Shown piece by piece: positions 4,144 to 40,000 of a stretch of DNA of 64,000 nt; the first letter of the stretch is position 1; each line of letters opens with the position of its first letter. A program made the translations under genes and the position numbers. A model generated the notes under the pieces. That model saw nothing but the letters and a program-made list of their open reading frames with translations, ran no database searches and was not told the DNA's origin. Source of the DNA: Pristiophorus japonicus (Eukaryota); NCBI RefSeq assembly GCF_044704955.1, contig NC_091994.1:48732001-48796000 (forward strand), written 5' to 3'.

Positions 4144-6808
4144 TTTCGTGTGAAGGTCTGTAATCTTGTCGCCAATTGTTATGTCTTCAGATGCTCTAAT
4201 AATGACTCCATGAGTCAATGTGTTGTACTTGAACTGTAGTGACCTTAGTCCATTTAATGTAACTCCAGAGTGAGGATCACACATGGTGGCCTGCCTTTTA
4301 TACTAGGCCTGGCTAACTGTTATGTATGCATGCCTGTTTACTGTGTGATGTCTGTAACACTGTTATAGAAAAATAGGTGCAGGAGTAGGCCATTCAGCCC
4401 TTCGAGCCTGCACCGCCATTCAATGAGTTCATGGCTGAACATGCAACTTCAGTACCCCATTCCTGCTTTCTCGCCATACCCCTTAATTCCCCTAGTAGTA
4501 AGGACTACATCTAACTCCTTTTTGAATATATTTAGTGAATTGGCCTCAACTTTCTGTGGTAGAGAATTCCACAGGTTCACCACTCTCTGGGTGAAGAAGT
4601 TTCTCCGCATCTCGGTCCTTAGGCTGTGACCCCTGGTTCTGGACTTCCCCAACATTGGGAACATTCTTCCTGCATCTAACCTGTCTAAGCCCGTCAGAAT
4701 TTTAAATGTTTCTATGAGATCCCCTCTCATTCTTCTGAACTCCAGTGAATACAAGCCCAGTTGATCCAGTCTTTCTTGATATGTCAGTCCTGCCATCCCG
4801 GGAATCAGTCTTGTGAACCTTCGCTGCACTCCCTCAATAGCAAGAATGTCCCTCCTCAAGTTGGGAGACCAAAACTGCACACAACACTCCAGGTGTGGCC
4901 TCACCAATGCCCTGTACAACTGTAGTAACACCTCCTTGCCCCTGTACTCATATCCCCTCGCTATGAAGGCCAACATGCCATTTGCTTTCTTAACCGCCTG
5001 CTGTACCTGCATGCCAACCTTCAATGACTGATGTACCATGACACCCAGGTCTCTTTGCACCTCCCCTTTTCCTAATCTGTCACCATTCAGATAATAGTCT
5101 GTCTCTGTTTTTACCACCAAAGTGGATAACCTCACATTTATCCACATTATACTTCATCTGCCATGCATTTGCCCACTTATTTAACCTATCCAAGTCACTC
5201 TGCAGCCTCATAGCATCCTCCTCGCAGCTCACACTGCCACGCAACTTAGTGGCATCTGCAAATTTGGAGATACTACATTTAATCCCCTCGTCTAAATCAT
5301 TAATGTACAATGTAAACAGCTGGGGCCCCAGCACAGAACCTTGCGATATCCCACTAGTCACTGCCTGACATTCTGAAAAGTACCCATTTACTCCTACTCT
5401 TTGCTTCCTGTCTGCCAACCAGTTCTCAATCCACGTCAGCACACTACCCCCAATCCCATGTGCTTTAACTTTGCACATTAATCTCTTGTGTGGGACCTTG
5501 TTCAAAGCCTTCTGAAAGTCCAAATACACCACATCAACTGGTTTGCCCTTGTCCACTCTACTGGAATCATCCTCAAAAAATTCCAGAAGATTTGTCAAGC
5601 ATGATTTCCCTTTCACAAATCCATGCTGACTTGTTACCTCTTTCCAAATGCACTGCTATGACATCCTTAATAATTGATTCCATTATTTTACCCACTACCG
5701 ATATCAGGCTGACCGGTCTATAATTCCCTGTTTTCCCTCTCCCTCAATTTTTAAAAAGTGGGGCTACGTTGGCTACCCTCCACTCCATAGGAACTGATTC
5801 AGAATCTATGGAATGTTGGAAAATGACTGTCAATGCATCCGCTATTTCCAAGGCCACCTCCTTAAGTACTCTGGGATGCAGACCATCAGGCCCTGGGGAT
5901 TTATCGACCTTCAATCCCATCAATTTCCCCAACATAATTTCCCGACTAATAAAGGATTTCCCTCAGTTCCTCCTTCTTACTAGACCCTCTGACCCCTTTT
6001 ATATCCGGAAGGTTGTTTGCGTCCTCCTTAGTGAATACCGAACCAAAGTACTTGTTCAATTGGTCTGACATTTCTTTGTTTCCTGTTATGACTTCCCCTG
6101 ATTCTGACTGCAGGGGACCTACGTTTGTCTTTACTAACCTTTTTCTCTTTACATATCTATTGAAGCTTTTGCAGTCCGTCTTAATGTTCCCTGCAAGCTT
6201 CCTCTCGTACTCTATTTTCCCTACCCTAATCAAACCCTTTGTCCTCCTCTGCTGAGTTCTAAATTTCTCCAAGTCCCCAGGTTCGCTGCTATTTCTGGCC
6301 AATTTGTATGCCACTTCCTTGGCTTTAATACTATCCCTGATTTCCTTTGATAGCCACGGTTGAGCCACCTTCCCTTTTTTATTTTTACGCCAGACAGGGA
6401 TGTACAATTGTTGTAGTTCATCCATGCGATCTCTAAATGTCTGCCATTGCCCATCCACTGTCAACCCCTTAAGTATCATTCGCCAATCTATCCTAGCCAA
6501 TTCACGCCTCATACCTTCAAAGTTACCCTTCTTTAAGTTCTGGACCATGGTCTCTGAATTAACTGTTTCATTCTCCATCCTAATGTAGAATTCAACCATA
6601 TTATGGTCACTCTTCCCCAAGGGGCCTCGCACAACGAAATGGCTAATTAATCCTCTCTCATTACACAACACCCAGTCTAAGATGGCCACTCCCCTAGTTG
6701 GTTCCTCGATATATTGGTCTAGAAAAACATCCCTTATGCACTCCAAGAAATCCTCCTGCACCGTATTGCTTCCAGTTTGGTTAGCCCAATCTATATGCAT
6801 ATTAAAGT

Positions 6809-7358
6809 TGTTAATTCCTGGATTCTTTTACTTCAATCTGGTTCAGTAAAATTACTGAGTCGAATACCTCTTGTGCTTTGAACAAAGCAGTCTTTATTAC
6901 CGGCCAGTAAGACCTATCAGACAGAAGATATACTCTCTGGATAGAGCGTACACACTCCCTACGGATAGGTGAAGTTACATCGTAAAGCGTTAACAGTTAT
7001 ACAGTTTTGAAATCAGATAACAAAATACAAATGGATTGACAGTCTAACTCAGCCACTCATTCGTCAATCTATATGAGATGTTCTTCTTGAAAGCTCAAGT
7101 ATTGCCTCTAAATGTTTCAATCTAATGGTGTGACTATTTACTGAGACCTTGCAATTCTGCAGATGTATTTCATGTTACAATTATATATTATTGGCAGGAT
7201 TAGTGACTTGAAACCTTGAGACAGATTGTTAGCTATGCTGATGTTGCACTATTTGCAATCTGACATTCTCCCAGCTATTCTTCCATGGCTTATACATTTT
7301 CATATATCCCGTTTACTTTACTATCCTTAATTCCATATATTCCGTTCAGATATCCACA
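6809..7358 (-). repeat. ERV 3' LTR
   Basis: 550 bp; AATAAA on minus strand at 6893-6898; adjacent PPT AAAAGGGGGGA (7359-7369). Confidence 0.97.
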
Positions 7359-7393
7359 TCCCCCCTTTTATCATTCTATGATAACATTTAGGA

Positions 7394-7927
7394 TCATTCT
7401 ATGAGTATTGCATTGTTGAGTAGTTCTCTAGTTTGTTGGATCATAACCCGGGAACCCTTGACCACAAGAGGGTCTGCTAACCTTGTCCTTACTTTACAGC
7501 AGAGGTTAAGGCAACCAACAATCAAACAGCAGGTAATTATCATGATGAGAACAATTGCCCCATGTATTAGATAGGATCTCCAAGATCCACCCAGAAACCA
7601 ATCAAACCTGCTAAGTTCTTTTGCTGGTGTGGATAACTTTTTCACCTCCCTCCTTATGTGATCGGCAAGGTGGGTTATGTTTCCTGAACTATCAGGAATG
7701 TAAGTGCAACATTCAGATCCTATCAGGGCACACGTTCCCCCTTTAGAATGTATAGGGATATGTGAACACACCCAGCATCTAGTGAAGTGCCCTTTTTCCG
7801 CATAAACGTAAGACATATACAAAAAGGTGTTTACATGGAGCTCTCGCCTTTGTCTTCCTTCCCGTGCACCAAAACTGTCATATATCAACACTATTATGCA
7901 GACAGTAGCATACAGACACAGTCTCAT
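7394..7927 (-). CDS. env: Internally deleted (mini) gamma-type Env, 177 aa, open frame
   Basis: Signal peptide, RQRR, CWVC (CXXC), fused at KGG to CALIGSECC (CX6CC), TM helix and cytoplasmic tail; upstream splice acceptor at 8079. Confidence 0.85.
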   Translation of the reverse strand: MRLCLYATVCIIVLIYDSFGAREGRQRRELHVNTFLYMSYVYAEKGHFTRCWVCSHIPIHSKGGTCALIGSECCTYIPDSSGNITHLADHIRREVKKLSTPAKELSRFDWFLGGSWRSYLIHGAIVLIMIITCCLIVGCLNLCCKVRTRLADPLVVKGSRVMIQQTRELLNNAILIE

Positions 7928-8078
7928 CTTATAAATAGTCCAATTATTTAGCTGATAAAAAGAGTTCTGTTTTCACGTTTCCCTTCAGGTCTCCGTCAGT
8001 GTATTTGGCTGTCTGACAGGTAAGAGTTCAAACTGATCCTCCTTCAACTGCCTTGTTCAGCTATAGGGAGGAGGAGAT

Positions 8079-8100
8079 CTGGAACAGAAACAGGAATTAG
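8079..8100 (-). promoter_or_regulatory. env splice acceptor
   Basis: Minus strand CTAATTCCTGTTTCTGTTCCAG|AT: branch point-like CTAAT, pyrimidine tract, CAG; first downstream AUG is the env start (A at -3). Confidence 0.7.
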
Positions 8101-8109
8101 ACTAACCAG

Positions 8110-9450
8110 CAAAATTTGTTTAAATGGTGATGAGCTTGCAGTGGTGCAGGTGAACCCAGGCACTTTTCCCCTCAACCTTGGCTGCAGTGGGGGTAGTGAG
8201 TGACACCTAAAAAGGCCCCTCCCATTGTGGCTCTAATCCCTTCCGAATCCATACTTCCCTGGTGCCACGAGGGACAATTCGGGTAAAACTGGGAGGTCGA
8301 GGTGAGCATCTTGAACCTGGTTGTGAACTAGTCGCAGAGCCTGAGTCAGAGAAAGAACATAGGTGGTCATCAGTCTAGCTGAGATCTCATATCTAGGAAC
8401 AATTTCCCTCATTAACACCTTAACAACAGTCTGAGTCTTATCGTCCAGGTTAGGGTAGGCTTCAATCCATCTGCTAAACACATCTACTATTACTAACACA
8501 TATCTGTAACACTGAACTTTTTGCAACTCAATGTAGTTCAACTGAAATGTCTCAAAGGGACCTTCGGGTAGGGGCGTTTTACCCCAATCACAGGGGACTC
8601 CCTTCCCTGGATTATGTTGCTGGCCAACCAGGCAACGACTACTGATGTTCTGGGTGAGCGCCTGGAGTTTAGGGTGCCACCAAGTAGCCAAAAGTGTGTC
8701 ACTCGTGGTCCTTGCTCCACAATGAGTAGCAATATGCAGACATTCTATAACCCATGAGGCCAACTCGTCAGACATGCAAGTCTGTTCCGCGGGAGTGGTC
8801 CAGAGTTTAGAAACATTGTCATAAGTACATGCATAATATTTCCACAACAGTTTATCTTTTTCAGGAGCGTCCCCCTGTGCTTTTATAACATCTTGGATGG
8901 TTGGCATTGGTTTTTCCGAGGCTAACTTATCCTTCGCAGGATTTTTAGTCTGACTCATAATTTTGGGCACTACCATCTGTTGGTCACGAGAGGCCTGTTT
9001 GGCCTCTTGGTACAATGGCAATGCGTTTGGGGAACATGAGGGCTTGCAACAAATCAGATACTAACTGTTTATGAGATATCTCATTCCCCTGTGAGGTTAG
9101 GAATCCCCTATTTTTCCATAATTGTCCGAAATCATGCGCCACCCCAAAGGCATACCTAGAGTCGGTATAGATATTGACTTTGAGATCTTTGGCCAAGATA
9201 CAGGCTTGGGTGAGGGCGAATAGTTCAGCTTGTTGAGCAGAATAGGCGGTTTCAAAGCAGCAGATTCCAAGACCTGATTCTCCTGGTTTACTATGGCGTA
9301 TCCTGAGATTCGTGTATCTTCTGGATTAATAGAAGTACTTCCGTTGACTGGGTTCTTCCTCATCTTGGGGTGGCTCAGTAAGAAAACAGGCCGGATTAAT
9401 TGCAGTATAGTGCCAAAAAGTCAGTTTAGGATTGCCTGTGATTTCAGTGG
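8110..9450 (-). pseudogene. pol: ERV pol remnant: end of RT connection, RNase H, partial integrase
   Basis: INPACFL; SAQQAEL; VNIYTDSRYAFG; HHCC-like LHIATH..CLVG; VIVDVFSRWIEAYP; IN core truncated; frameshifts. Confidence 0.9.
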
Positions 9451-9496
9451 GTTCTGTCGGATAGAGGGCCAGTCCACATTGCCCTGCACTGGGATC

Positions 9497-10345
9497 TCAA
9501 TTAATGGGAGTATAACCCACATCGGAGGGGTCCTCTGCCCACACATGAGGATCCACATAGTCAGGTATGTCCGAGCCAGTATGATGCTGTAGAGTCGTTA
9601 ATACTTTCTCGGGGTCCCCATTAAATTGGACTGTTCGGCCATGTTTTACAATTTGCACATCCCGGCTGGTAGGGTCAGCCTCATCTATGGCCTTACGTAC
9701 CATAACTCCCAAATCTTTAGCATGGTGAGGGGCTAATACTTCACGAGCAATATGCGGTGCCATTGTTAGGGGCTGTTTCCACAGATTCTTATCCACTTCC
9801 ACAAAATCTGCCTCTCTTTCCAGTCCAGTCACTCTAGCCCTTAATAGAATTCCCTTCATTTCCCCTTCGTGATCCTGATAAAAGTTCTGCAGGTCCTGAT
9901 TCTTTCCACTGGGATCGTATGCTAGGGTCACGTGACAGAGTGCCTGCGGCAGGTCCAGAGACCACCACTGAGGGGTTCTAGTGGTATAATACTGCCGCTT
10001 AAGGGTTTCCTGTTTTACAATAATCCCATCATCTCCACACTCCAAATGCAACTGGAATTTGCAAAGGAGGTCTCTAGCCATCAAGTTACAGTCCAGATTG
10101 GTTGTGATAACAACTCGATGTTCCACCGATTCTTCCTGGTAACCCATTTTAACCGGTTCTGACACTGGGAATGTCAAGATTTGTCCCAGGAATCCTGAAA
10201 GTTCCTGTGTTTCAGTAGAAGCAGGGAGTTTAAGCTTTGATTGTACAGAAGACATGAAGGCTCCCGTATCTATCAAAAAGGGTTGCCACTCATTCAGAAT
10301 GGGTTCGTCGTCCGGGGAGGATCCCTGCACAATCAAGCTGCGTAG
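9497..10345 (-). CDS. pro: ERV protease + putative 2H-phosphoesterase domain + first residues of RT
   Basis: FLIDTGA and NLMARDLL protease motifs; HVTLAY (9926-9934) and PHIA (9746-9754) 60 aa apart; VDPHVWAEDPSDVG resembles a class I RT start; in frame with gag across TGA 10346-10348. Confidence 0.8.
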   Translation of the reverse strand, partial: LRSLIVQGSSPDDEPILNEWQPFLIDTGAFMSSVQSKLKLPASTETQELSGFLGQILTFPVSEPVKMGYQEESVEHRVVITTNLDCNLMARDLLCKFQLHLECGDDGIIVKQETLKRQYYTTRTPQWWSLDLPQALCHVTLAYDPSGKNQDLQNFYQDHEGEMKGILLRARVTGLEREADFVEVDKNLWKQPLTMAPHIAREVLAPHHAKDLGVMVRKAIDEADPTSRDVQIVKHGRTVQFNGDPEKVLTTLQHHTGSDIPDYVDPHVWAEDPSDVGYTPIN

Positions 10346-11783
10346 TCAATCGGGGGACAATTGACCAAAGGGGTTGTTCTGGGAGAAGTTAGTGTAAGAT
10401 CCTCCTCTCCCCCCTTGCCCCCCTCCTCTTCCTCCTCTTCCTTTTCCATGCTGATGGTAGGGGCAATTTTTATTCCAATGTCCTTCCTGCCCACAATTAA
10501 AACAGTCAATTCCTCTTACCCAGTCCCGGCCTCTTCCCATACCATGCCGGGGACAATAGGGAGGTTTATTAGCAGGGCTCGGGCCGTTTGGTTGTTTAGT
10601 ATAACCGTATCCTTGCTTATCCATCCAATCCTGTATGCAACACTGCGGTTCTATTGATCCTTCCTCCCGAGATGGCTCTTCCTTTCTAGTCACGTATTCA
10701 GTCTTGACCCGGGTTGGGGGCGCACCTCCCCCCTCCCCTTTCTTTTTCTGCCAATAATATCTAACTGCCCTTTCCATCTGTCCGGATAGCGTGAGCAATC
10801 AAATAGTTGTTTGAAGATCACAGACATCTATAGAGAGGTGGTCTGCAGCTTGTTGTGCATCAGGGTTTGGCATTGGTCTGACAGGGAATTGGTGTCGGGA
10901 CTTTGGGATCTTGGAAATCATTTCTAGGCCGGTGGATGTTTCAGAGCTGTCTGACTGCTTGACAGTTCTGCGTCTCGATCGGCGGGGGTGTTTGCTATGT
11001 CTTTCACAACTTGGACTGGTAGGTTGACTAGAAGATTTACGGGACTGTTTGTGATGTTGAGATATAGTTCTGCCCTTTCGAGTGTGAGATCTGGTCCTTT
11101 CGGCTGTATTGCTTGTAAACTGGGGATCCGAATCGCTATCAGAGGATGAGGAGTCAGTTTGGGTTTGTTGCTTTGGTGATATGTGGTTGTTCCTAACTCT
11201 TTTTACCGGAGTGTTAGGTGGAGGGTGTTGGGAAGAGGACTGGAGCAAGAGGCCAGGGGGTGCGGGAGGCGCCGTTGGGCGCTGAGTCAGTGGCCACTCA
11301 TCAATTTCATCATCAGCCTCGGTTAACACAAAGCCAGCCATTTTAACTTGTAGTTGATCAATACTTTTCTCAGAGGTCCCAGAGGATCTCTTAGCAAGTT
11401 TCTCGTGCGCACATTCATTCTTTTTTTTTAAAGACGTCTACAGTTTTAACATGTGTTCCCTCTGTCAATGCAAGTCCTAATTTAATAGCATTGTTTGCCA
11501 ACTCGATAGAAGTGATGCATCTTTTAATTTCTGACAATAATGTCGCCAGGTTGCAATTAAATTTTTTTATCCCCTTTTCCTCGTCCCCTTCTCCAAATTA
11601 ATCCCTGTGCTTTTTTTTTACCTCTACGCTTCTAGTGTCACTTAGAGGCCACTGGTCATCCCCTAATAATTTGTTCAGGGCTCCTGATAATTTTCTAAAG
11701 TCTTCAGCTCTTTCAGGGAATTCCTCACATAGCTTTTGTAGCGGATTATCCGCATCCGTGGTTTTATCTAACTGATTACCCAT
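10346..11783 (-). pseudogene. gag: ERV gag remnant (MA, PTAP late domain, NC; capsid deleted)
   Basis: MGNQ myristoylation-type start at 11783; RPTAPP; single knuckle CFNCGQEGHWNKNC with RGG repeats; disruption after MA and an in-frame stop at 10799-10801. Confidence 0.85.
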
Positions 11784-11919
11784 TTTCACACTGCCCCTCG
11801 TATTACTGTGTCGCTACGCGTTCGTGTCGTCGTGCAATTTAAACAAACTTACAAATAGACACAGACTTTACAGAACTAACACGGACTTTAACTAACTCCA
11901 AATAACCAAACTTTACTAA

Positions 11920-12500
11920 TGCTAACACTTACCCGCATCGCCGCACGGTCCGCGTCGCCGCGCGATCTCAATACTAAACTACCACGTCGCCTCGCAGTTC
12001 ACGTCGCCGCGCAATCCGCGTTGCCTCGCAGTTCACGTCGCCGCGCAATCCGCGTCGACCCGTTGCTCGCGTCGCCGCGCGAGTTAAGATACTTTAACTT
12101 TACTTCAAACACTTACCCGCATCGCCGCACGGTCCGCATAGCCGCGCGATCTACAAAATAGACAAAGACTTCTAACACTTACCCGCATCGCCGCACGGTC
12201 CGCATAGCCGCGCGATCTACAAAATTACCCGCATCGCCGCACGGTCCGCATAGCCGCGCGATCTTAAAACTTTACTTAAAACTCTAAACACTTTAAGACT
12301 TACAGACTTACTGCCATTAGCACTGACTTTCGCGATTCGCGTTGCTGCGCCTCTGCGTCACTACGCGTCGGCGTCACTGCGCGTTTACGTCACCGCGCGT
12401 TGACGTCACTGCGCGTTCGCTTCACTGCGCGTTTACGTCACTGCGCGTTCGCTTCGGCCCTTCTCCTCTCGGCCGCGCGTTCGCGTCGGCCCTACCTTCC
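11920..12500 (-). repeat. CpG-rich tandem repeats in the ERV 5' leader
   Basis: 4x TTACCCGCATCGCCGCACGGTCCGC..CCGCGCGATCT, 2x CCTCGCAGTTCACGTCGCCGCGCAATCCGCGT, several CGTCACTGCGCGTT. Confidence 0.9.
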
Positions 12501-13644
12501 GAGTTGCTGTGGGTTTTTTTTTAAATTCAATCAGAGCCTAGACGGGCCAAGTGATATTCAAGGTCCCTTCGTCGTACCTGAGTTGAACACCTATCCTCTA
12601 TTTAAATCCCCATTTTATTCCCTGTGAGCCTAATTTTCTAATTTTGATTTCTTATGAGCCTCAATTAATTTCTTTTAGTCTCCAAATTTCCCTATCCTTT
12701 CGCGTTACTGCGCAATTTAAATTCAATCAGTCAATGAAAGCCCTAATTTAATGGAGTTTTTTTGCCAATTGGACAGGAGTGATTTTATATTTTTCATAAT
12801 TTAAAATCTCAGAACATCTTTTTCTTTCGGCACCTATTTAGTACGTTACTTTTTTTTTATAACTAGAGAGAAGTCTGGCACGTAGGCTGTGGACTGCTTT
12901 TCGTTATCTCAATTGTTCCAGCCTCAAGGTCGTGTTATTTAATATAATTTTTTTTAAAAATCCTTTTGAATCCATCTCAGTTGTTTTGCTGTGCCTTCTC
13001 TGAATGTTTGCTTTCAACAAGTTTTACTTTTTTTTTTTAAAACCACCGGGACCATGTAATTTTTTCTTTTTTAACAAATCTATCCTTTGGGCATTTCCTG
13101 GCTCCGCAACTTATCATCCGAATATACGTAATTCAATAAGGTTCACACTCTTAAACTTCCCACATACAGGACAACACTACGAAGGGTTAAAACAAACTTT
13201 CATTCTGTTTGAGATAAAACAAACCACAACTCCCCGGCTTTTTTTTTTACAGTAAAAGTCACAGAAGCATTTCTCATTTAAACAGACATTCACAAGAGTC
13301 TCTTTTCTTTCCTATTAATTTTTTTTTTTTTGGATCCATGATTGATCATCTATCCCTATCTAGCTCTAACTATCTTTCCAAGTCGCCGCTTGGTTTGCGT
13401 CATCGCACAATTTCCCTATCTCTATCCCTATTCTAAGTTTGAAAGGTATTCACCAGATTGTCTTGGATCTCGTTCAGACACTACCTGAGAACCAGCGAGT
13501 GGCTAAACTTTCCTCAGACTTTTGAAACCGGGGGAAACTGGAGCAGTATTGAAATCATACTCACTCCAGTGGCCATTTTCCCCTCGTCTCGTCCAAGGCT
13601 AGTCTGGCTCTTAATTCGCAAGTTTTCGGCAGTCGTCCGTTGAG

Positions 13645-13662
13645 ATCCCACTTCTGACACCA
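13645..13662 (-). promoter_or_regulatory. ERV primer-binding site, tRNA-Leu (CAG/CAA)
   Basis: TGGTGTCAGAAGTGGGAT is complementary over 18 nt to the vertebrate tRNA-Leu 3' end ATCCCACTTCTGACACCA (tRNA sequence recalled, not searched). Confidence 0.9.
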
Positions 13663-13664
13663 AA

Positions 13665-14214
13665 TGTTAATTCCTGGATTCTTTTACTTCAATCTGGTTC
13701 AGTAAAATTACTGAGTCGAATACCTCTTGTGCTTTGAACAAAGCAGTCTTTATTACCGGCCAGTAAGACCTATCAGACAGAAGATATACTCTCTGGATAG
13801 AGCGTACACACTCCCTACGGATAGGTGAAGTTACATCGTAAAGCGTTAACAGTTATACAGTTTTGAAATCAGATAACAAAATACAAATGGATTGACAGTC
13901 TAACTCAGCCACTCATTCGTCAATCTATATGAGATGTTCTTCTTGAAAGCTCAAGTATTGCCTCTAAATGTTTCAATCTAATGGTGTGACTATTTACTGA
14001 GACCTTGCAATTCTGCAGATGTATTTCATGTTACAATTATATATTATTGGCAGGATTAGTGACTTGAAACCTTGAGACAGATTGTTAGCTATGCTGATGT
14101 TGCACTATTTGCAATCTGACATTCTCCCAGCTATTCTTCCATGGCTTATACATTTTCATATATCCCGTTTACTTTACTATCCTTAATTCCATATATTCCG
14201 TTCAGATATCCACA
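13665..14214 (-). repeat. ERV 5' LTR
   Basis: No difference from 6809-7358 found on reading through. Confidence 0.97.
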
Positions 14215-16760
14215 AAGTCACCCATGATAACTGCTGCACCTTTATTGCATGCACCCCTAATTTCCTGTTTGATGCCCTCCCCAACATCACTACTACTGTT
14301 TGGAGGTTTGTACACAACTCCCACTAACGTTTTTTGCCCTTTGGTGTTCTGCAGCTCTACCCATATAGATTCCACATCATCCAAGCTAATGTCCTTCCTA
14401 ACTATTGCATTAATCTCCTCTTTAACCAGCAATGCTACCCCACCTCCTTTTCCTTTTATTCTTATCCTTCCTGAATGTTGAATACCCTTGGATGTATAGT
14501 TCCCAGCCCTGATCATCCTGCAGCCACGTCTCTGTAATCCCAATCTCATCATATCTGTTAACATCTATTTGCACAGTTAATTCATCCACCTTATTACGGA
14601 TACTCCTTGCATTAAGATACAAAGCCTTCAGGCTTGTCTTTTTAACACTCTTTGTCCTTTGAAAGTACTCTTGTACTGTACATACCTTACCTGTACACCA
14701 GAGGGTGCTGCTGCTGGAGACCTAAGGAACTCACAGCTTGTTGTCCTCACTAAGGAGCTGCAAATAAAGGACTACGGGTCTACACAGTTTAAGTATCTAA
14801 CACTGCCTCATGGAGTCATTGCTAAAGGTCCCTACATACATTACAACTGGCGACGGGAATACGAGGTCACGAACTACATGCTCAGCATGTCGAATCGCAG
14901 CATCTTTCAGCAATTTACCGATGAGAAAGATTGGGATGCTTTAGTAGAAAGATTGGAACACTTTAGGAGACTGGCTGCACCGTGCGACTTTGACGACCTC
15001 GTAAATGAAGCATTAAGGGACTCTAAGCCGACGAGAGCAGTGCACCGCATTGATACTTCTAAGGGCAGAAACGCTGCCTCAAGTCCCGCAACTCTAAGTC
15101 CGCCATATGGGGCAAACCGGCTAGCCCCATGCTGGCGCTATGGAGGAAACCACAGGGCCCACCAGTGCCGCTAAAAGGACTATGCATGCAAAGAGAAAAG
15201 GCACCTTCAAAGGATGTGCAGAAAAAGCTTTACTCACCGCGTCTCTGATGAGTTCGCTGATCACTGGGGCTCCGACACAGAGGAAGGTGAAGTTGCTCAA
15301 CCCGTGGAAGAAGAGTATGGAACTCATACCTGCTCCACTGAAAGTTCTCCGTGGACGATGAAAGTAGACGTCGACGAGGTCCCAGTTTCTATGGAGATCG
15401 ACACAGGGGTGAGCCAGTCTGTGATGAGCCAAATGACCTTTGAAAATATTTGGATAAATCCTGCCAATCGACCAAAACTGTCTCCTGTCCAGGCGAAGCT
15501 GCTCACCGATACCAAAGGTAAAATCCAAATCGTTGGCAGCGTAGAAGTCCAGGTCTCCCAGGGCGGCGTGCTGAACAAACTTCCCCTGTGGGACCGTGAC
15601 GGTCCTATGATGCTGGGCAGGAATTGGATAAACCCGATGCACATCAGGTGAAGTGACCCTGTGGAAGAAAAGACCACCACAGCCCACATGCAGGAAAGCC
15701 AGGAAATGGCTGCAAAACCAGCACCACGAGGAAAAGAACTTGTAATCAAAGTGGCCGCGGCCATACCACGAGTGAGCATGGAGGAGCATCACGTGACACC
15801 GAGCGGCCAATCAGATTTGAAGGCTCCCTTAAAGGAGACCAGTAACCAAACAAATTTAAAGGGGAAGTTTCAACTATTTGAGTACATCGACTTTAAAGCT
15901 AAAGATGCAATTAAAGGGTGCAAGTATCAAAATGTATGCAATGTAACCATGAATTGTGATGCTGGTTGAACTAATGTGACTAATGAGATGAATGCAGGTG
16001 TCAGTAAGGTTAAGAACAAGTTTATTATGGTTAACAATAATAATAGAGAATGTGAAATGCCTAATGTAACCTTGTCTGTTGAAACCAGGACACCCAAAAG
16101 TGATGCAAATGCTAGAATGTATAATGCAGGCTCGACTATGTGTGATCAGAACCAAGGTGTCATGTATACCGGTAGGACACTGCCAAAGGACATTGGATCT
16201 ACAGGGACCATGCTGATGCCAATGGAATCCCCCTGTAGGAGACCCCCAGGTCTAGCAGGCTACCTGACCATGTAGCCTGGACCTTTGGAACGAATGTGAT
16301 GCCCCTTGCAGGACACACTCACAGCCTGTGGGAGTAGACCCACTACAGGGACAGTGGTCAATGGGCAGCCCAGCCACCTCTAATGGCAACCAGCACCAGA
16401 CCAGCCCTACAACCCCTGGCCACCAGGGCCAACACCAGGAGCATGAGGCCAATACCCTCCAGCTTTCCTGGCAAACCCTGGGATGACCTGACCCTCATCC
16501 CAATTGGTAGACAGTCTTGTGGTCCTGCCCACCACACCAGGTAACCCTTATAAAAAGGAACTCACAGCTTGTTGTCCTCACTCAAGAGCTGCAAATAAAG
16601 GACTACAGGTCTACACAGTTTAAGTATCATACCCTGCTTCGTGGCGTCATTACTAAAGGTGCCTACATACACTACAGTAACATACACGCCTCCCACTGCA
16701 GTGCCCTCTAGTGGCACACCTTGTAATAGTACAAGCAGTAACCATGTAGGATACATGACA

Positions 16761-18954: not shown

Positions 18955-21900
18955 AACATAAGAACATAAGAACATAATAAATAGGAGCAGGAGTAGGTAA
19001 TTTGGCATCTCGAGCCTGCTCCGCCATTCAATAAGATCATGGCTGATCCGATCATGGATTCAGCTCCACTTCCCTGCCCGCTGCCCATAGCCCTTTCTGC
19101 CCATATCGTTCAAAAATCTGTCTATCTCCAGCTTAAGTATATTGAATGATCCAGCCTCCACATTCTCGGGGGCAGAGAATTCCACCGATTTACAATCATC
19201 TGAGAGAAGACTTTCCTCCTCATCTCAGTTTTAAATGTGCAACCCCTTATTCTGAGACTATGTCCCCTAGTTTTAATTTCCCCTGTGAGTGGAAGTATCC
19301 TCCCTGCATCCACCTTGTCAAGTCCCCTCATTATCTTATATGTTTCAATAAGATCACCTCTCATTCTTCTGAACCCCAATGCTTAAAGCCCAACCTACTC
19401 AACCGATCTTCATAATTCAACCCCTTCACCTCCGGAATCAACCTAGTGAACCTTCTCTGAACAGCCTCCAATGCAAGATATCCTTCCTTAAATAAGGAGA
19501 ACAAAACTGCACGCAGTACTCCAGGTATGGCCTCACCAATACCCTGTACAGTTGTAGCAGGACTTCTCTGTTTTTATACTCTATCCCCCTTGCAATAAAG
19601 GCCAACATTCCATTTGCCTTCCTGATTACTTGCTGTACCTGCATACTAACATTTTGTGTTTCATGTACAAGGACCCCAGGTCTCTCTATACTGCAGCACT
19701 TAGCACTTTTTTTCAATTTAAATTATAATTTGCTTTTCTATTCTTTCTGCCAAAGTGGATAACCTCACATTTTCCCACATTATATTACATCTGCCAAACT
19801 TTTGCCCACTCACTTAGCCTGTCTATATCCCTTTGCATATTTTTTGTGTCCTCCTCACAATTTGCTTTCCCACCCATCTTTGTATCATCAGCAAACTTGG
19901 CAAAATGACATTTTGGTCCCTATATCCAAGTCATTAATATAGATTGTAAATAGTTGAGGACCCAGCATTAATCCCTGCGGCACCCCTGTTTACGAACCGG
20001 AAAATGACCAATTTATCCCGACTCTCTGTTTTCTGTTAGTTAGCCAATCCTCCATCAGTGTTAATATATTACCCCCAACAACGTGAACTTTATTTTGTGC
20101 AGTAACCTTTTATGTGTCACGTTATCAAATGACTTCTGGGTATCCAAATACACCAAATCCACTGGTTCATCCTTATCCACCCTGCTCATTACCATTGGGT
20201 TCCTAAGAGATGAAACTGCACAAAGGGAGGTTAAAGTAACAGTGATCTCAGTCTTTATTAAGACACTCCAGAGTGAGGAACAGGCCTTTGGGGCCAGCTT
20301 ATATACAGTGCTCCCAAGGGATGCTGGGATCTCTTCGGACTTCAGGGGATGCGCTCCCTATGGTCTGGAGGGCCAGGACCACAAATTTAGTGGTGCCTCT
20401 CTGGGCGCGTTGCTCAACTGAGCACACACACGGCATTGTCGTACACAGGACTCTAAGTCAGAGTTGATACCGGGCCACCACACGTGGGATCTGGCTATCG
20501 CTTTCATCATTACTATACCCGGGTGTGTGCTGTGGAGATCCGAGATGAACGTCTCCCTGCCCCTTTTGGGTAGCACTATGCGGTTACTCCACAACAGGCA
20601 GTCTGCCTGAATGGACAGCTCGTCGTTTCGCCGCTGGAACGGCTTGATTAGCTCTTGCATTTCAACGGGGATGCTGGCCCAGCTCCCATGCAGTACAGAG
20701 TTTTTTACTAGGGACAGCAGAGGATCTTGGCTGGTCAGGGTCATAAATTGGTGGGCCGTGACAGGTGATTTATCATTTTCAAATGCTTCCATGACCATCA
20801 ACAAGTCTGCGGGCTGTGCCACCATCAACAAGTTTTCAGGCTGCGCCATTTCCCCCTATGTGGTGGGCAATGGTAGCCGACTGAGAGCATCCGCACAGTT
20901 CTCGGTGCCTGGCCTGTGGCGGATGGTTTAGTTATACACTGATAGCGCGAGTGCTCACCTTTGTATGAGGGCTGAGGCATTAGTATTTATCCCATTGTTT
21001 TCAGCGAACAGGGATATGAGGGGCTTGTGATCGGTTTCCAGCTCAAATTTGAGGCCAAACAGGTACAGATGCATTTTCTTTACCCCGAACACACACGTTA
21101 ATGGCTCTTTCTCAATCATGCTGTAGGCCCTCTCAGCCTTAGACAAGTTCCTGGAGGCATAGGCGACAGGTTGCAACTTCCCCGCAACATTAGCTTGTTA
21201 TAATACACACCCGACTCCGTACGACGACGCATCACATGCTAACACAAGTCTTTTACACGGGTTATATAATACAAGCAGCTTGTTGGAGCATAAAATGTTT
21301 CTGGCTTTCTCAAAAGCAATTACTTTGTTTTTTTACCCATACCCAGTTCTCACCTTTACGCAATAACACATGTAGGGGCTAGAAGAGGGTGCTTAACTCC
21401 GGTAGGAAGTTACCAAAATAGTTGAGGAGTCCCAGGAACGACCGCAGCTCCGTGATATTCTGTGGCCTGGGCGTGTTCCTGATAGCCTCTGTCTTGGCGT
21501 CTGTGGGCCGAATGCCGTCCGCCGCAACCTTTCTCTCCAAGCAGTGTGGGGCCATCGCCCAGGACAATCCAGAGTGGCAGTTCATGCACCGTGCCCTCAT
21601 AGGTGACCTTGACCATGGCGCTGCCCAGGACAATGATGAGCTCTTTGGTGTATGTTCTCCATTTTGTGTGGATGGGGCTCAGGGCTGGTCTGAGTACCTT
21701 GTTGCACCACAGTCTCTAAACATCTTTTTACTCATGATGGATTGGCTAGCGCCAGTGTCCAGTTCCATGGCTATGGGTAAGCCATTCAATTTTACGTTTA
21801 GCATTATAGGTGGACATTTCGTTGAAAATGTGTGCACCCCGTGTACTTCAGCATCTGCCTCCTCTCTCTGAGGCTCGAAATTGCTTTGATCCACCATGGA

Positions 21901-23162
21901 CCGATCTTCCTCTGCCACATGTAGGTGCAGAGGTTGCAGCAAGAAGGTGTGAATTGCTTTGCATTCACCTTTGTTGCGGACTCTGAGTCATCTGGGTCAC
22001 CTGAGGCCTGCTGGTAGTTGCAGACTCATGGTTTCTGCCCTGTACATTTCTGCTCGCAAACACAGTTCCAGTTAATTTATGAACATTGCTAGCACTTGTG
22101 TGCTGAGAGATTTGTTTGGTGCTATCACTGTTGGACATAAACGCCTGTGCTATCGCAATGGCCTTACTGCGGGTCGGTGTCTCTACAGTCAAAAGTTTTC
22201 GTAGGTTGGTCTTGTGGCCAATGCCCATTACAAAAAAGTGTCTGAGCATCTGCTCCAGGTAGCCATCAAACTCACATTGTCCTGCAAGTTGCCTTAGCTC
22301 GGTGACGTAGCTCGCCACTTCCTGACCTTCAGATCGCTGGCACGTGTAGAACCGATACCTTGCCATCAGCACGCTCTCCCTCGGGTTAAGATGCTCCCGA
22401 ACCAGTGTACACAGCTCCTCATATGATTTATCTGTGGGCTTCACCGGAGCCAGAAGATTCTTCATGAGGCTGTAGATCGGTGCGCTGCAGACCGTGAGGA
22501 GGACCGCTCTCCTTTTTGCAGCGCTTCCTTCTCCGTCCAGCTCGTTGGCTACAAAGTACTGGTCTAGCCGTTCGACATAGACTTCCCAGTCCTCACCCTC
22601 CGAGAACTTCTCCAGGATGCTGCATCTTTGCGTTGGATTCGTATACTCGCCGCCAGTTATTGTGTGCCTAACACAAATGAGACTGCACACAGGGAGATTA
22701 AAGTAACAGTGACCTCAGTCTTTATTAAGACACTCCAGAGTGAGGAACAGGCCTTAGGGGCCGGCTTATGTACAGTGCTCTCAAGGGATGCTGGGATCCC
22801 TTGGGACTTCAGGGGATGCGCTCCCTGGTGGTGGAATATGGGAGTGCATGCTTTACAGATACAAAACAGTTCCATCCTCAAAGAACTCCAGCAAATTTGT
22901 CAAACATGATTTCCCTTTCATAAAACCATGCTGACTCTGTTTGATTTAATTATTCTTTTCCAAATCTCTTTCTACTGCTTCCTTAACAATGAACTCCAGC
23001 ATTTTACCAACGACAGATGTTAGGCTAACCGGTCTATAATTTCCTGCTTTCTGTCAGCCTCCTTTTTTAAATAGGGGCATTACATTTGCAGTTTTACAAT
23101 CCGCTGGGACCTCCCCAGAATCCAATTAATTTTGATAGATTACAACCTATGCACCCATTATC
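18955..23162 (-). mobile_element. CR1 LINE (older family), split by Gypsy B1
   Basis: (AACATAAG)n tail; RT fragments; paralog of 50885-52355. Confidence 0.9.
20193..22868 (-). mobile_element. Gypsy/Mag-like LTR element B, copy 1 (RT and most of IN deleted)
   Basis: 5' LTR 22658-22868, truncated 3' LTR from 20193; PBS TGGCGGCGAG; gag 21965-22620, protease LDTGAS, RNase H TDHKPL, HHCC; TSD ATTAC/GTTCC with empty site GTTAC in the right arm. Confidence 0.92.
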
Positions 23163-23325
23163 AAACAGTTCCATGGCAGGTACAGCACAGTTTAGATAAA
23201 GAGTAAAGCTCCCGCTACACTGTCTCATCAAGCACTCCCAGGGCAGGTACAGCACAGGTTAGATACAGAATAAAGCTCACTCTGCACTGTCCCATCAAAC
23301 ACCCCCAGGACAGGGGCAGCACAGG
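23163..23325 (+). repeat. ~64-bp satellite (GCAGGTACAGCAC.GGTTAGATACAGAGTAAAGCTCCCTCTACACTGTCCCATCAAACACTCCCAGG)
   Basis: About 2.5 tandem units. Confidence 0.85.
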
Positions 23326-23399
23326 GATGCCATAGCATCATGGTTATGTTATCAGGACTCGTAATCCAGTTGCCTGGACTAATGATCCAGAGACATAAC

Positions 23400-25965
23400 T
23401 GAAAAAGGGAAGAGACGATTAGAGACCATGAGGGTAATCTCTGTGTGGAGGCGGAAAATGTTGGTATGGTTCGTGATTAATACTATGCATCTGTTTTCAC
23501 AAAGGAAAGGACCAATGCAGATACTGCTATCGAGGAGGAGTGTGAAATTCTGGATGAAATAAACATAGTGAGAGAAGAGGTATTAAGGGGTTTAGCAGCT
23601 TTGAAAGTGGATAAGTCCCCAGGCCCGGATGAGATTCATCCCAGGCTTTTGAGTGAAGCAAAAGAAGAAATAGCAGAAGCCTTGACCATCATTTTACAGT
23701 CCTCTTTGGATTTAGGCATGGTGCCGGAGGACTGCAGGACTGCAAATGTGGTACCCTTGTTTAAGAAGGGAGAAAGGAATAGGCCAAGTAATTACAGGCC
23801 TGTCAGCCTAACATCAGTGGTGGGAAAATTATTGGAAAAAATCCTGAAGGATAGGATAAATCTACATTTAGAAAGGCAAGGATGAATCAGGAACATTCAG
23901 CATAGATTTGCTAAGCGAAGATCGTGTTTGACTAAACTGATTGAATTTTTCGAGGAAGTAACCAGAAGGGTCAATGAGGGTGTTGTGTACGATGTAGTGT
24001 ATATGGACTTTAGCAAAGCTTTTGATAAGGTTCCAAATGGCAGACTAGTCATGAAGGTAAAAGCTCATGGGATCCAGGGAAAAGAGGCAAGTTGGATCCA
24101 AAATTCGCTTAGCGGTAGGAAGCAAAGGATAATGGTTGATGGATGCTTTTGTGACAGGAAATATGCTTCCAGTGGGGTTCCGCGGTGCTCAGTACTGGGT
24201 CCCTTGCTTTTTGTGGTATACATCAATGATCTAGATTTGAATGTAGGGAGTAGGATTAAGAAGTTTTCAGATGACACTAAAACTGGCTGTGTGGTTAATA
24301 ATGAAGAGGAAAGTCATGGACTGTAGAAGGATATCAATATGTTGGGGTTAAAAAGGAGGCTTCTCTCCTTCAAGGTGGACTAACTGATATAGTTAATCAA
24401 CACCTCGCCCCTATTCCACCGTATAATGACCACGGAAGTAAACAAATGAAATCCCAGGTTCAACCGGCTTTTATTACGAGCAATGCACAGGAAGGTTCAA
24501 TAGTGGAACCTCCGAAATACAAGAGGTTTCAAGTAAAATTTATAGAGGTTTTGGAGAGGAGCACCCTCCTACAAAATCCTCAATAGGTCTAATTCTATCA
24601 GCGAAGTTATATTGATCAAACTGTCTCTGAGTGGTATATGCAATTGCCTATGTTGTTCCATGACTTGCTCTTTGCCACAGTATACTAGACGCCTAAACTG
24701 GCTTCCTTATCTCTTCCTCAGAGACTTCTGATCAACAACTGCTGATTTTGCTGTTTAAGTATTACAGAGGTTACGGATTCAGTTTAATGTGTTATACATT
24801 TGTGCTATACCTACATTTGCAAGTGTTACATACATAGGCAATTATACAGACCTTCCTAATACTGATAAGTTCACTACCTTCAGCATAATTCTGACCACCT
24901 ATTTGCAACTCTTACAATTTATCCCTTACAAATCTACTGGTCATGTGGGCAGCACAGTGGCAAATGCAATTTAATTCGGAGAAGTGTGAGGTAATGCACT
25001 TGGGGAGGGCTAATAAGGAAAGGGAATACACATGAAACGATAGGCCACTTAAAAGTGTAGTGGAACTAAGGGACCTTGGGGTGCTTGTTCACGGATCCCT
25101 GCGAGTAGCAGACCAGGTGGATAAGGTAGTTTAGACGGCATAGGGAATGCTTGCCTTTATTGGCTGAGGCATAAAAAAAGAGCAGCGAGGTTATGCTTAA
25201 ATTGTATAATACTCTGGTTAGGCCACAGCTGGAGTAATGCGTGCAGTTCTGGTCACCGTATTATAGGAATGACATGATTGCACTGGAGAGGGTGCAGAGG
25301 AGATCTACGAGGATGCCACCTGGAATGGAGAATCTTAGCTATGAGGACAGATTAGATAGCTGGGTGTGTTCTCCTTGGAACAGAGGAGGCTGAGAGGAGG
25401 CTTAGGGGCCTGGATACATTGGATAACAAGGGCCTATTTCCCTTGGTGGAGGGGTCAATTACAAGGGGGCATAGATTTAAGATGGTTGGTGAAAGGTACA
25501 GCTGACTTGAGGGGGGGCTTCTTCACACAGAGGGCTATGGGGATCTGGAACTCACTGCCTGGAAGGGTGGTGGATGCAGAAACCCTCACCACATTTAAAC
25601 GGTGCTTGGTTGGGCACTTAAAGTGCCGCAATCTGCAGGGTTACGGACCTAGAGCTGGTAAGTGGGATTAGACTGGATAACCTCTCGTTGGCCGGCGCAG
25701 ATACGACGGTCAGTACTTCAGGGTATGGAATACGGCCAGGGTGATCTCCTGGACTAGTTTCGATGTAAGGGATGTCGCAATTGTGTGGGTGGACTGGTTG
25801 GGCCGGATGCTCTTTACCTGTCCGCCATTGTTCATTGTTCACAGGTTTATATGTAACCTTCAGGGCTGCTGACCGAGGGCCGTGCAGCTCTTTGTTGGCC
25901 GGCGCAGACACGATGAGCTGAAATGGCCTCCTTTTGCGCTGTAGATTTCTATGTTTCTATGTTTC
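23400..25965 (+). mobile_element. CR1 LINE 3' half, interrupted by a solo LTR
   Basis: KSPGPD, NYRPVSL, FSKAFD, FSDD motifs; (TTTCTATG)n tail. Confidence 0.9.
24340..24930 (-). mobile_element. Solo LTR, probably ERV-type (591 bp)
   Basis: TG..CA; 4-bp TSD AATA/AATC; AATAAA and TATAAA on minus strand; interrupts a continuous CR1. Confidence 0.75.
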
Positions 25966-26357
25966 CCTCTTTGTTCTGTAAATTCCTGTGGGCCCTTTGA
26001 GCCGTTAATGATCCTTTGACACAATATGCTTTAATACTGGGTGTGATCTCAGATGTTTTAATTCCAGTAATAGCTCAGAGCTGAGGTGTTGACAATGAAA
26101 CAGATGCTTCTTGATGGATGGTCAATAGAGTTGTTCCAGGAAGAAAGTGGATTAATGTAAATACAGTGGGCGACAGAAGGAAGAATTGAAATCTCGGCAC
26201 GGATCACATGGAGAGACTGCAGCAAAGCAGCCCAGGGAGGCGACTCACTGAGAGAGGGGAGGTAGTGATCATTGGGAAAATCCATTACTTAATCCCGGCC
26301 GTTACTGAGTTAGGCTGATCTCACACCCGGTGTGGGTCTGAGCCCCCCCACACACAG

Positions 26358-26618
26358 AATGGGACAGTGTAGAGAGAGATTTACTCTGTGTCTAACCCTG
26401 TGCTGTACCTGCCCTGGGAGTGTTTGATGGGACAGTGTAGAATGAGCTTTAATCTGTATCTAACCCTGTGCTGTACCTGCCCTGCGAGTGTTTGATGGGA
26501 CAGTGTAGAGGGAGCTTTGATCTGTATCTAACCCCATGCGGTACCTGCCCTGGGAGTGTTTGATGGGACAGTATAGAAGGAGCATTATTCTGTAGCTAAC
26601 CGTGCTGTACCTGCTGGG
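26358..26618 (-). repeat. ~64-bp satellite, about 4 units, opposite orientation to 23163-23325
   Basis: Repeated GCTGTACCTGCCCTGGGAGTGTTTGATGGGACAGTGTAG. Confidence 0.9.
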
Positions 26619-27682
26619 GGAGAAATTTAAATTAAAATGGTTGTCATTTCCCACGCCTTGCATTCCTGAGCATTAGACGTAGAGACAGCGTTTTTGTTGG
26701 TCAGTCCTATTATTACAAAACTCATTCTGTTCACCCAGAAGGTTCTGTCTCTTGCTGGGGTTCGGGTTCCTCAGGCAGTACCTTCACGGGCCAGCGCTGA
26801 GGGTTGCTATTGAAGCATTGGTGACACCATTTTCAGTCTCCATCGTGATTTCCACCTTGATAACTTTGCCCATCTGCCCTCCTGCCTGAACTTCTCTTCT
26901 GCTGAAACCCTCATCTATGATTTGGTTACCTCTAGCCACGATATCCTTAGAAGAAATAGATACAAATAATGTAATAGGAATAAGAGCAATGATTTTTAAT
27001 TCATCGATTGAATCCCATTGAGGCTGTGATCAGAGCAGGGCGTCATGCTCAGCTACAAATGACATAGCATGTACAGCACACAAACCAGACATTCGGACCA
27101 ACTGCTCCATGCTGGCATTTATGCTCCACACAAGCTAGCTCTTCATCTCACCCTTTAGCATAACCTTCTATTCCTTTCGCCCTCATTTGTTTATCTTGCT
27201 TCCCCTTAAATGGATCTGTACTATTCACTTCAATTACTCCCTGTGGTAGCGGGTTCCACATTCTCACCACCCTGGGTACAGAGGCTTCTCCTGAAATCCT
27301 TATTGGATTTATTGCTGACTACCTTATCATTATGGTCCCTATTTTTGGTCTCATAATTATTTCATGATTTCAGTTTTTTAAAATTCTATTTTAAACTGTG
27401 TTTGCTTTTCCGCTGTCGCCTTTATCAGTGTACTAATAACAATTATAATCTGGCTCAAAAACAGCAGAGCCTTAATTCTACACATGAGACAAGGACTCAA
27501 TGGCTTCTGTTATCACAGAGTCACAGATTCATAGAGCACAGATTGAGGCCATTCGGTCCATCATGCTCGTACCGGCTCTGTTATCGAGCTATTGAATCAG
27601 CCCCACTCCCCTGGTCTGTTCACAGATCCCTTCAAATCCCCCACTTCCAGTATTGATACCAATTCCCTTTTGAAAGTTACTG

Positions 27683-27960
27683 TTGAAATGCAACATCCCC
27701 ACTGACACCCGGGAATCCCTGGCCAGAGACCACCCCAGGTGGAGGAAGAGCATCCGTGAGGGCATTGAGCACCTCGAGTCTTGTCGCCGAGAGTATGCAG
27801 AAAACAAATGCGGCAAACCAGACTCCCCACCCACCCCTTTCCTTCAACCACTGTCTGTCCCACCTGTGACAGAGACAATAATTTCCACATTGGGCTGTCA
27901 GTCACCTGAGAACTCACTTTTAGAGTGGAAGCGATTTCGAGGGACTGCCTATGACGATGA
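27683..27960 (+). mobile_element. RTE-clade LINE 3' end
   Basis: CNIPTDTRESLARDHPRWRKSIREG C-terminus; (GAT)n-like tail. Confidence 0.8.
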
Positions 27961-28064
27961 GTAAATCTCTTCCACACCTTCTCCAAGGCCTTCCTAATGT
28001 GTGCTGCCGAATAGTCAAGCTGGGATTAACCAGTGTTTCTTATAGATTTTACTGTACCTTCCTT

Positions 28065-28435
28065 ATGTGGGAATCGGTGGTGAGGGCTGCATTTATTGTC
28101 CATCTCTAATTGCCACCGAGAAGGTGGTGCTGAATACATCTAGAGGACTATTTAGAGTCAACCACATTGCTGTGGGACTGGTGTCATATATATGCTAGAC
28201 TAGGTAAAGATGGGAGATTTACTTCCCTAAAGGATGTTAGTGAACAAGATGGGTAGTTACGACAATCCTGGATCTACACGGTCACCATTACTGATAAATA
28301 TTTTAATCCCAGGTTTATTTAATTGAATTTAAATTGCACAGCTGCCATGTTGGAATCTGAACTCATGTCCTCGGATCATTAGTCCAGGTCCCTGGTTCAC
28401 TAGTTCAGCACCACAATAACTATACAACCATACCC
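28065..28435 (-). mobile_element. tRNA-derived SINE (old)
   Basis: tRNA-like head (CTGGACTAATGATCC.AG.ACATGAGTTC), head also at 23326-23396 (+); 3' CAATAAATGC..CCCACAT. Confidence 0.6.
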
Positions 28436-29612: not shown

Positions 29613-29975
29613 ACATAGAAACATAGAAACACAGAAATTTACAGCGCAGAAGGAGGCCATTTCAGCCCATCGTGTCCATGCCGGCTGACGAAGAGCCGCA
29701 CAGCCATTGGTCAGCAGTCCTGAAGATTACATGTAAACCTTTGAACAATGAACAATGGCGGAAAGGTAAAGAGCACCCAGCCCGACCAGTCTGCCCCACC
29801 CAACTGCAACACCCCTTACACTGACACATTCTACACTCCACCCCAACCAGAGCCACATGATCTCCTGGGAGAGGCAAAAACCAGATAAAAACCCAAGCCA
29901 ATTTAGGGGAAAAAAAATATGAGAAGCATCCTCTCCAACCCATCCAGCCGATCAAAACTAGTCCAAGAGATTTAC
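29613..29975 (-). mobile_element. CR1 3' UTR fragment
   Basis: (CATAGAAA)n tail; homologous to 25740-25960. Confidence 0.75.
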
Positions 29976-30228
29976 TTTATTGTGTTACATAAAGTGTTGG
30001 ATTGAAAGGGGTTAATTGAAAATGTTTGTTCAGTGACTGTAATTAATATCAGTCTCCATTGACCGAATTGTGTCACTGGATGTATTCCCTCTCATATTAA
30101 TAAGGCACTCTTTTCAATGTGTTACTCCATAATGTAAGTGAGAGCATCGCCTCCGGCATTAACAGCGATCAGCATGCTGCTTCACAGAGAGGGAGTCAGA
30201 ATCTGAGAACAGTAGATTGGAACGTTAC

Positions 30229-39900: not shown

Positions 39901-40000
39901 ACCAGTCACACAGACTTTTTAAAGAGACAGGACCAATCATCTGGCTTTTAAAGAGATAGTACCAGAAACTCAGGCTTTTTAAAGAGTCTGATCCAGTCAC
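36915..40000. repeat. ~35-bp minisatellite (TTTTAAAGAGACAGGACCAGTCACACAGGC), blocks 36915-37515 and 39274-40000
   Basis: Dozens of degenerate units; split by a CR1 fragment. Confidence 0.92.
37530..39273 (-). mobile_element. Old CR1 ORF2 fragment (endonuclease to RT)
   Basis: VGVVYRPP, ANVTPLFKKG, LDFQNAFDKVPH. Confidence 0.9.

Follow-up and report, generated by a model that had tools for sequence, protein, structure and literature searches.

A probable young member of a non-autonomous lineage of class I endogenous retroviruses in a sawshark-like genome

Mouse VL30 is a non-autonomous endogenous retrovirus (ERV) that is mobilized in trans, and VL30 proper is a rodent element packaged by particles of the murine leukemia virus (MLV) type. 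Here, we describe a provirus in a 64-kb stretch of Pristiophorus japonicus DNA (NC_091994.1, positions 48,732,001 to 48,796,000; the window below), which an earlier note, made from the letters alone, had called VL30-like. That term is apt for the kind of element, a non-autonomous ERV, and not in the sense of VL30 proper, as all named close relatives of the provirus are chondrichthyan.

Further non-autonomous ERVs mobilized in trans are bovine ERVK[2-1-LTR] D-type, mouse ETn/MusD, IAP I-delta-1 and koala RecKoRV (described in the accessible part of PMC10924933). Like these elements and VL30, the shark provirus has intact cis elements and no functional genes, measures about 7 kb, has an internal structure in common with other copies and belongs to a transcribed family. 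Unlike the D-type/ETn group, however, it is of class I and appears to owe its structure to the nested loss of its own gene segments instead of a swap with a foreign segment; in addition, a helper, polymorphism and de novo insertion are features of the known systems, whereas the helper is presumed here. With its cis signals intact, its replication genes lost, a defective structure present in several copies and family RNA being made, the provirus is, in our judgment quite probably, a young insertion from a class I (epsilon-like) lineage of non-autonomous ERVs in a sawshark-like host, copied in trans and eroded by template switching.

Published shark ERVs date to tens of millions of years. The CmiERV lineages II/III of the elephant shark are epsilon-like (clade Mu), and their long terminal repeats (LTRs) are 2.4 to 3.3% diverged, according to the accessible text of PMC4422223. 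The provirus resembles them, and the Pol models of sharks and skates, in its class I Pol (via the skate relative P0003), its gamma-type Env motifs and its chondrichthyan host, which does not imply kinship to CmiERV; unlike those of CmiERV, its LTRs are 0% diverged. [quoted passage not shown] In the available sections of that survey, 13 cartilaginous genomes were screened and no chondrichthyan is among the 37 host orders, and 12 of its 14 supplementary files, those searched here, hold no row for Pristiophorus. Since the screen required an unbroken match to reverse transcriptase (RT), such a screen would miss the shark provirus. In the literature searched, no description of a shark ERV both young and non-autonomous was found (titles and the beginnings of abstracts, with most subscription journals outside the coverage), and the provirus thus apparently represents the known VL30/ETn/bovine D-type sort of element in a group of hosts from which it has so far been unreported.

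Provirus structure and integration site

The provirus occupies positions 6809 to 14214 (7,406 bp) of the window on the minus strand, as do all of its parts given below. Its 5′ LTR (13665 to 14214, with an AATAAA at 13754) and its 3′ LTR (6809 to 7358) both run from TG to CA and are identical, as the earlier note had claimed: alignment, the check proposed there, gave 0 mismatches in 550 bases, and the identity ends exactly at the LTR boundaries. The other cis elements named in that note were each located as well. A 4-bp target-site duplication (TSD) flanks the element (6805 to 6808 on the left, repeated at 14215 to 14218 on the right), a primer-binding site (PBS) of 18 nt lies at 13645 to 13662, 2 nt from the 5′ LTR, and the polypurine tract (PPT), a run of 11 purines at 7359 to 7369, adjoins the 3′ LTR. 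The PBS is of the tRNA-Leu type: a 20-nt pattern containing its complement coincided with the end of an ARAGORN tRNA-Leu at 12 of 20 scanned loci (these 20 having been fetched out of 126), the remaining 8 having no call there, and had no match among the viral contigs searched. Together with the gag-pro-pol-env order, these are the hallmarks of a retroviral provirus.

The host sequence is a long interspersed nuclear element (LINE), which we take to be of the CR1 type, split by the provirus into segments at 4370 to 6808 and 14215 to 14660 on the minus strand. A paralogue at 58.4 to 61.3 kb, 95% identical on both flanks, continues uninterrupted across the insertion site with a single copy of the TSD, and the provirus therefore represents a true integration into the LINE. 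LINE-mediated retroposition of the HERV-W type was ruled out by the two complete LTRs, the 4-bp TSD and the lack of a poly(A) stretch. A near-intact LINE with long open frames, 95% identical to the interrupted one, spans 57283 to 61300 on the plus strand. No further copy of the provirus was found elsewhere in the window, and an Rfam search of the DNA gave 0 matches.

Deletions common to other copies

Sized against full-length shark and skate relatives (for Pol, models of skate and catshark), the gene losses amount to about 388 residues of RT, 112 residues of the integrase core, about 284 residues of Env and most of the capsid, in line with those listed previously. With these losses, the provirus has no capacity for producing capsid, RT, RNase H and integrase, nor for an Env that is fusogenic. 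The earlier note held that these lesions predate integration, i.e., that a defective genome was copied in trans, and proposed that the same deletion junctions be sought in other copies. Four of them (integrase, RT, capsid and one in RNase H) were found there, and the window is nested within a clade of integrase-deleted sequences, both of which support that proposal.

The integrase junction was found in gene models and in a contig of a second species. In four of the five closest P. japonicus models (P0001, P0006, P0013 and P0023; P0014 ends just before the junction), the two integrase anchor motifs are 11 residues apart, versus 123 residues in all nine skate, catshark and Logan proteins that contain both motifs. 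The integrase-deleted models are 85 to 96% identical to the window and form a single clade with it (support, 100/99) in a tree of the unbroken N-terminal piece of integrase, for which 15 of 17 rows were retained (two with fewer than 110 columns were dropped). Within this clade, the window is sister to P0023 (100/97), which agrees with it in 203 of 211 residues and in 40 of 40, and has the zinc-finger change and the shifted tail in common with it. P0023, in which RNase H is open, must come from another locus because some of its residues are missing from the window DNA, and P0001 and P0006 (85 to 87%) retain residues of the RT connection that are gone from the window.

Contigs of four public runs (X1, X2, X5 and X8) were aligned to positions 6650 to 13664. 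X8 derives from a second species (organism B), whose share of sampled words is 0.07 and which was used only through its aligned contigs. One X8 contig (8313 to 8511) spans the integrase junction over 199 nt with 10 differences and 0 gaps, while others retain pieces of RNase H and run beyond the RT junction (past 9431). That junction is crossed by an X1 contig (9372 to 9496; 9 differences, 0 gaps, 93% identity), and X5 contigs run across the junctions in capsid (647 nt, 2 differences) and at 9011/9012 in RNase H (353 nt, 0 differences). Among the eight X5 pieces listed, six differ from the window by 11 in 2,160 bases, and the other two (LTR and leader) are far more divergent. Fuller relatives exist as well, as P0046 has a longer env and loose contig ends at 9012 (21 in X1), 9345 (19 in X1) and 7744 mark copies in which those segments are retained. 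It follows that the lesions are nested: the loss of the integrase core, found even under the second species label, came earliest, and those in RT, capsid and RNase H came afterward. Such nesting points to a non-autonomous lineage eroded stepwise during copying in trans; as a genome without integrase is unable to insert itself, all later copies would have required proteins supplied in trans. In a further X1 contig, the primer site is joined to the LTR (13664 to 6821) with ten letters that are different, a hint of a second type of LTR end.

If, instead, an old provirus had decayed in place and its LTRs had later been homogenized by gene conversion, the junctions should be private to this locus, yet four deletions recur in other copies, some of which differ from the window by as little as 0 to 2 positions per several hundred bases, and the models are 85 to 96% identical. 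A slow shark clock would permit millions of years without LTR change, several lesions were not seen elsewhere, and the CpG content of gag-pol is at background, all of which would suit decay in place; on balance, we regard it as improbable. We give slightly less credit still to segmental duplication, or other DNA-level copying of one dead provirus, as the source of the common deletions. The other copies are known from protein models and short contigs only, so that their flanks are out of view; however, the provirus has its own TSD in the LINE and identical LTRs, DNA duplication cannot reset LTR identity, and the sister copies differ by 4 to 15% in protein and by nested deletions.

For the favored course of events, copying in trans, we infer packaging, helper and timing as follows. 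Transcripts would start from the 5′ LTR, with packaging signals presumably carried by the long leader, and the RNA would be packaged by the Gag-Pol of a competent relative, the putative helper. Reverse transcription would then be primed with tRNA-Leu and followed by integration by helper proteins, and template switches at microhomologies would delete genes stepwise, without cost, the deletions being inherited by later copies.

Age, transcription and present activity

If a rate of 2.2e-10 per site per year is used, as assumed for sharks in PMC4422223, zero differences in 550 bases put the 95% bound on the age of the insertion at 12.4 million years (My), and a mammalian rate puts it at 1.2 My. 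The germ-line rate measured in the epaulette shark, 7e-10 per site per generation, is among the lowest measured (available part of PMC10587355). The provirus is probably among the youngest copies, with an age of less than a few My, and formally younger than about 12 My at the shark rate.

This dating presupposes that the LTR identity is genuine and not a collapse of two slightly different LTRs during assembly or polishing. The family is present in high copy number (34,802 X1 contigs aligned, flank included), and even the best run contains only 0.79 of the sampled words, which leaves some room for such an artifact. A collapse would, however, yield the common family base, and both LTRs carry a base in U3 (7062/13918) that is near-absent from the aligned contigs (X1 depth, 21.5 of 221,204; none in X2 or X5), which fits a single parental U3 copied to both ends. 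Moreover, the sequence is coherent at the TSD and in the LINE on either side, and the deletions in common would be left unexplained, and hence we see very little chance that the LTR identity arose in this way. Loose contig ends at 6808 were considered as an empty-site test, which was rejected: the flanks are a high-copy LINE, so that these ends are not locus specific but stem from LINE paralogues.

The CpG dinucleotides of the leader, which the earlier note had presented as undecayed, do show an observed/expected ratio of 2.0 at 11800 to 12520, compared with a maximum of 0.79 across 158 windows outside the element, but the rest of the element is at background (gag-pol, 0.47; env, 0.29; LTR, 0.51). 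Since the excess is confined to the leader repeats, CpG richness was rejected as an age clock and provides no independent date.

The 1.9-kb leader (11784 to 13644) contains, in this same CpG-island-like block, short tandem repeats of 16 to 66 bp and three used GT splice donors (11933, 12304 and 12312). Contigs of X2 and X5 join all three to an env splice acceptor at 8078 to 8079 (none do so in X1 or X8); the joints are GT-AG on the minus strand, and the first ATG past the acceptor is the env start. On the basis of these joints and the low depth of the LINE flank relative to the element, we infer that X2 and X5 are RNA runs, in which case the family is transcribed and spliced from leader to env, with near-identical transcripts that are not tied to the window locus. 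The depth of X5 also steps near the env acceptor, a hint only, contig depth being a poor measure; summed depth was not taken as copy number or expression level. At several sites, letters other than that of the window prevail in X1 and are scarce in X2 (97% versus 4.5% at 8504, 97% versus 16% at 9207 and 98% versus 20% at 8873). As the letters of the window at these sites are rare in X1 and common in X2, its sub-lineage is suggested to dominate the X2 transcripts.

Two P. japonicus gene models contain pieces that match the element or its family. In isoform X3 of a model with a Myb/SANT domain (P0022), the last 35 residues equal the integrase tail of the window (8236 to 8340), starting from the acceptor-like site 8340/8341, and isoforms X1 and X4 diverge at that exon boundary; the host exons lie outside the window, and the provirus or a sister copy may capture the splicing of this gene, to go by the models. 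A guanylate-binding-protein-like model (P0020) opens with about 70 residues of the linker between RNase H and integrase (window, 8737 to 8961; 79% identity), a possible ERV-host chimera.

Several observations weigh against a young copy made in trans. No helper was found, and a search for longer proteins gave five matches, none of them an RT-bearing P. japonicus model (weak evidence); likewise, no relative of the provirus was present among the viral contigs searched. The RT, capsid and RNase H junctions are each bridged by a single listed contig, and the sample behind X1 may be the one from which the window comes. The env deletion, the deletion at 9345 and the gag frame breaks were not seen in other copies (models and contigs of the four runs), and the last of these may be private to the locus or assembly errors. 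As for transcription, the RNA type of X2 and X5 is not on record, the splice joints have 22 to 30 letters on their short side, and the X2 majority differs from the window at about 13 of the 40 sites listed (381 more sites lie beyond these), so that the transcripts come mostly from sister loci and not from the window locus.

The earlier suggestion of recent or ongoing activity is kept plausible by the transcription of the family, but zero differences in 550 bases allow about 12 My and the searches found no helper; present-day jumping is possible. A bolder scenario, which we think somewhat unlikely, is that a defective sub-lineage is mobilizing now in the living shark germ line, being a minority of the family's DNA copies, dominating the family transcripts in one tissue, parasitizing a competent helper and expressing a spliced mini-Env. 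If true, this would be the first ongoing retroviral mobilization in a cartilaginous fish, and a lineage would have persisted in trans across a species split, its genes lost one at a time.

Coding remnants, class and host

The 5′ part of gag (10799 to 11783) starts with an ATG at 11783 and comprises matrix, a proline-rich region and the start of capsid; it contains a stop at about 11600, a frame shift at about 11420 and the capsid deletion at about 10800 to 10860, which, by comparison with P0011 (which has a weak Gag_p30 match), cut capsid down to its two ends. The frame breaks sit in homopolymer runs, which vary among contigs. The end of capsid and a nucleocapsid with one CCHC knuckle follow at 10349 to 10798. 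Between nucleocapsid and protease lies an in-frame TGA (10346 to 10348). An in-frame gag-pol readthrough stop is the usual class I layout, and this TGA is most likely a natural readthrough codon and no lesion. The stops and frame shifts reported earlier for the remnants consequently stand for gag, RT, RNase H and integrase, but not for this codon or for the env remnant, which is uninterrupted over 177 codons.

The aspartyl protease (10043 to 10279; Pfam RVP, E = 4e-4) is open and forms a single open frame of 282 codons with an insert between protease and RT (9503 to 10003); a PDB search with this frame gave no match. RT is reduced to two stubs (9349 to 9502), its first 25 or so codons and the end of the connection domain, by a deletion at about 9435 that removes about 388 codons and shifts the frame (residues 95 to 483 of P0002). 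The RNase H remnant (9011 to 9348) has a deletion at about 9345 that reaches into the first catalytic residue, a frame shift at about 9265 and a deletion of about 60 nt at 9011/9012; a point change at the first catalytic Asp was dropped as a candidate because this residue falls on the deletion junction. The N-terminal part of integrase and the start of its core (8371 to 9010) have one zinc-finger Cys and the first catalytic Asp replaced and end at the in-frame 112-residue core deletion (8370/8371); in a PDB search, foamy virus integrase was the sole match to this piece, a weak one. The C-terminal remnant (8129 to 8370) is frame shifted at about 8251, followed by a later stop, and contains the second acceptor-like site (8340/8341).

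The open mini-env (7394 to 7927; relatives, P0046 to P0049) encodes a signal-peptide-like start, the CXXC of the surface subunit (SU) in frame with the CX6CC of the transmembrane subunit (TM), a membrane anchor and a tail. The tail differs among copies, other X2 and X5 copies diverging behind 7414 (window, 7394 to 7430). At the junction near 7744, where about 284 residues were lost, there is a three-residue microhomology, present in the SU as well as the TM of P0047; a junction at short homology is the expected mark of RT template switching. As the open, in-frame env remnant lies 3′ of a used splice acceptor, and the protease and the insert with its His motifs form an open 282-codon frame, a co-opted gene cassette retained for a mini-Env (or protease-2H) product was considered. 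An in-frame join is a one-in-three chance, however, and sits at a microhomology; nothing is left of the receptor-binding region, the fusion peptide or the immunosuppressive domain; the protease frame lies behind a broken gag and a stop; and identical LTRs suggest a young, unselected insertion. Co-option is the least probable of the alternatives that we weighed.

All named close relatives being chondrichthyan, the assignment of the DNA to a cartilaginous fish made in the earlier note is supported; the closest are P. japonicus models, and further Pol models are from Leucoraja, Scyliorhinus, Heptranchias and Heterodontus. The window's own RT being deleted, the class was read from the skate relative P0003, whose best match is the XMRV/MLV RT (E = 5e-136), and from the gamma-type Env motifs (SU CXXC and TM CX6CC; the Env relatives match Pfam TLV_coat), which together place the provirus in class I, as a presumably epsilon-like ERV. 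Epsilon-like ERVs occur in nearly all jawed vertebrates (accessible text of PMC6001957).

The protease-RT insert of about 150 residues has two His motifs 60 residues apart and stays open in this defective copy; the first His is kept in 11 of the 12 aligning relatives and the second in 14 of 15, and 11 relatives are found among cluster representatives (named: catshark, skate and devil ray). Its language-model neighbors are 2H phosphoesterases (score, 0.85 to 0.87), a lead only, as no Pfam 2H match and no Foldseek match at E = 0.001 were obtained (model mean predicted local distance difference test [pLDDT] score, 39.9) and the skate copy gave no usable match in the protein atlas search. Because walleye dermal sarcoma virus and another retrovirus of fish are already noted to have 2H domains (PMC9503650), the candidate 2H-like insert is no novelty and speaks for the epsilon-like group. 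Like walleye dermal sarcoma virus and other fish 2H retroviruses, the provirus has a two-His-motif insert between protease and RT and an in-frame gag-pol stop; unlike walleye dermal sarcoma virus, it is defective and endogenous, and its 2H fold is no more than a lead (score in the atlas, 0.87; pLDDT of the model, 40).

Elsewhere in the window, there are retrotransposon remnants, presumably Gypsy-like from their motifs, at 20500 to 33800 and 45600 to 48040 (repeats 93 to 95% identical, about 10.5 to 11.4 kb apart), degenerate tandem arrays at 36905 to 39956 (31-bp units), 43430 to 43925 (85 bp), 55669 to 56144 (68 bp) and 62603 to 63135 (about 87 to 100 bp), and a short C2H2 zinc-finger-like remnant with a stop on the minus strand (356 to 523).

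Mouse, cattle and koala already provide well-known examples of the mechanism as such. In a low-mutation shark genome, however, ERV insertion would be an active contributor to variation if a lineage is young, transcribed and dependent on a helper, and one sister copy appears to cap an isoform of the Myb/SANT gene model. The nested series of deletions, finally, offers material on the question of how defective ERVs come to outlast their helpers.

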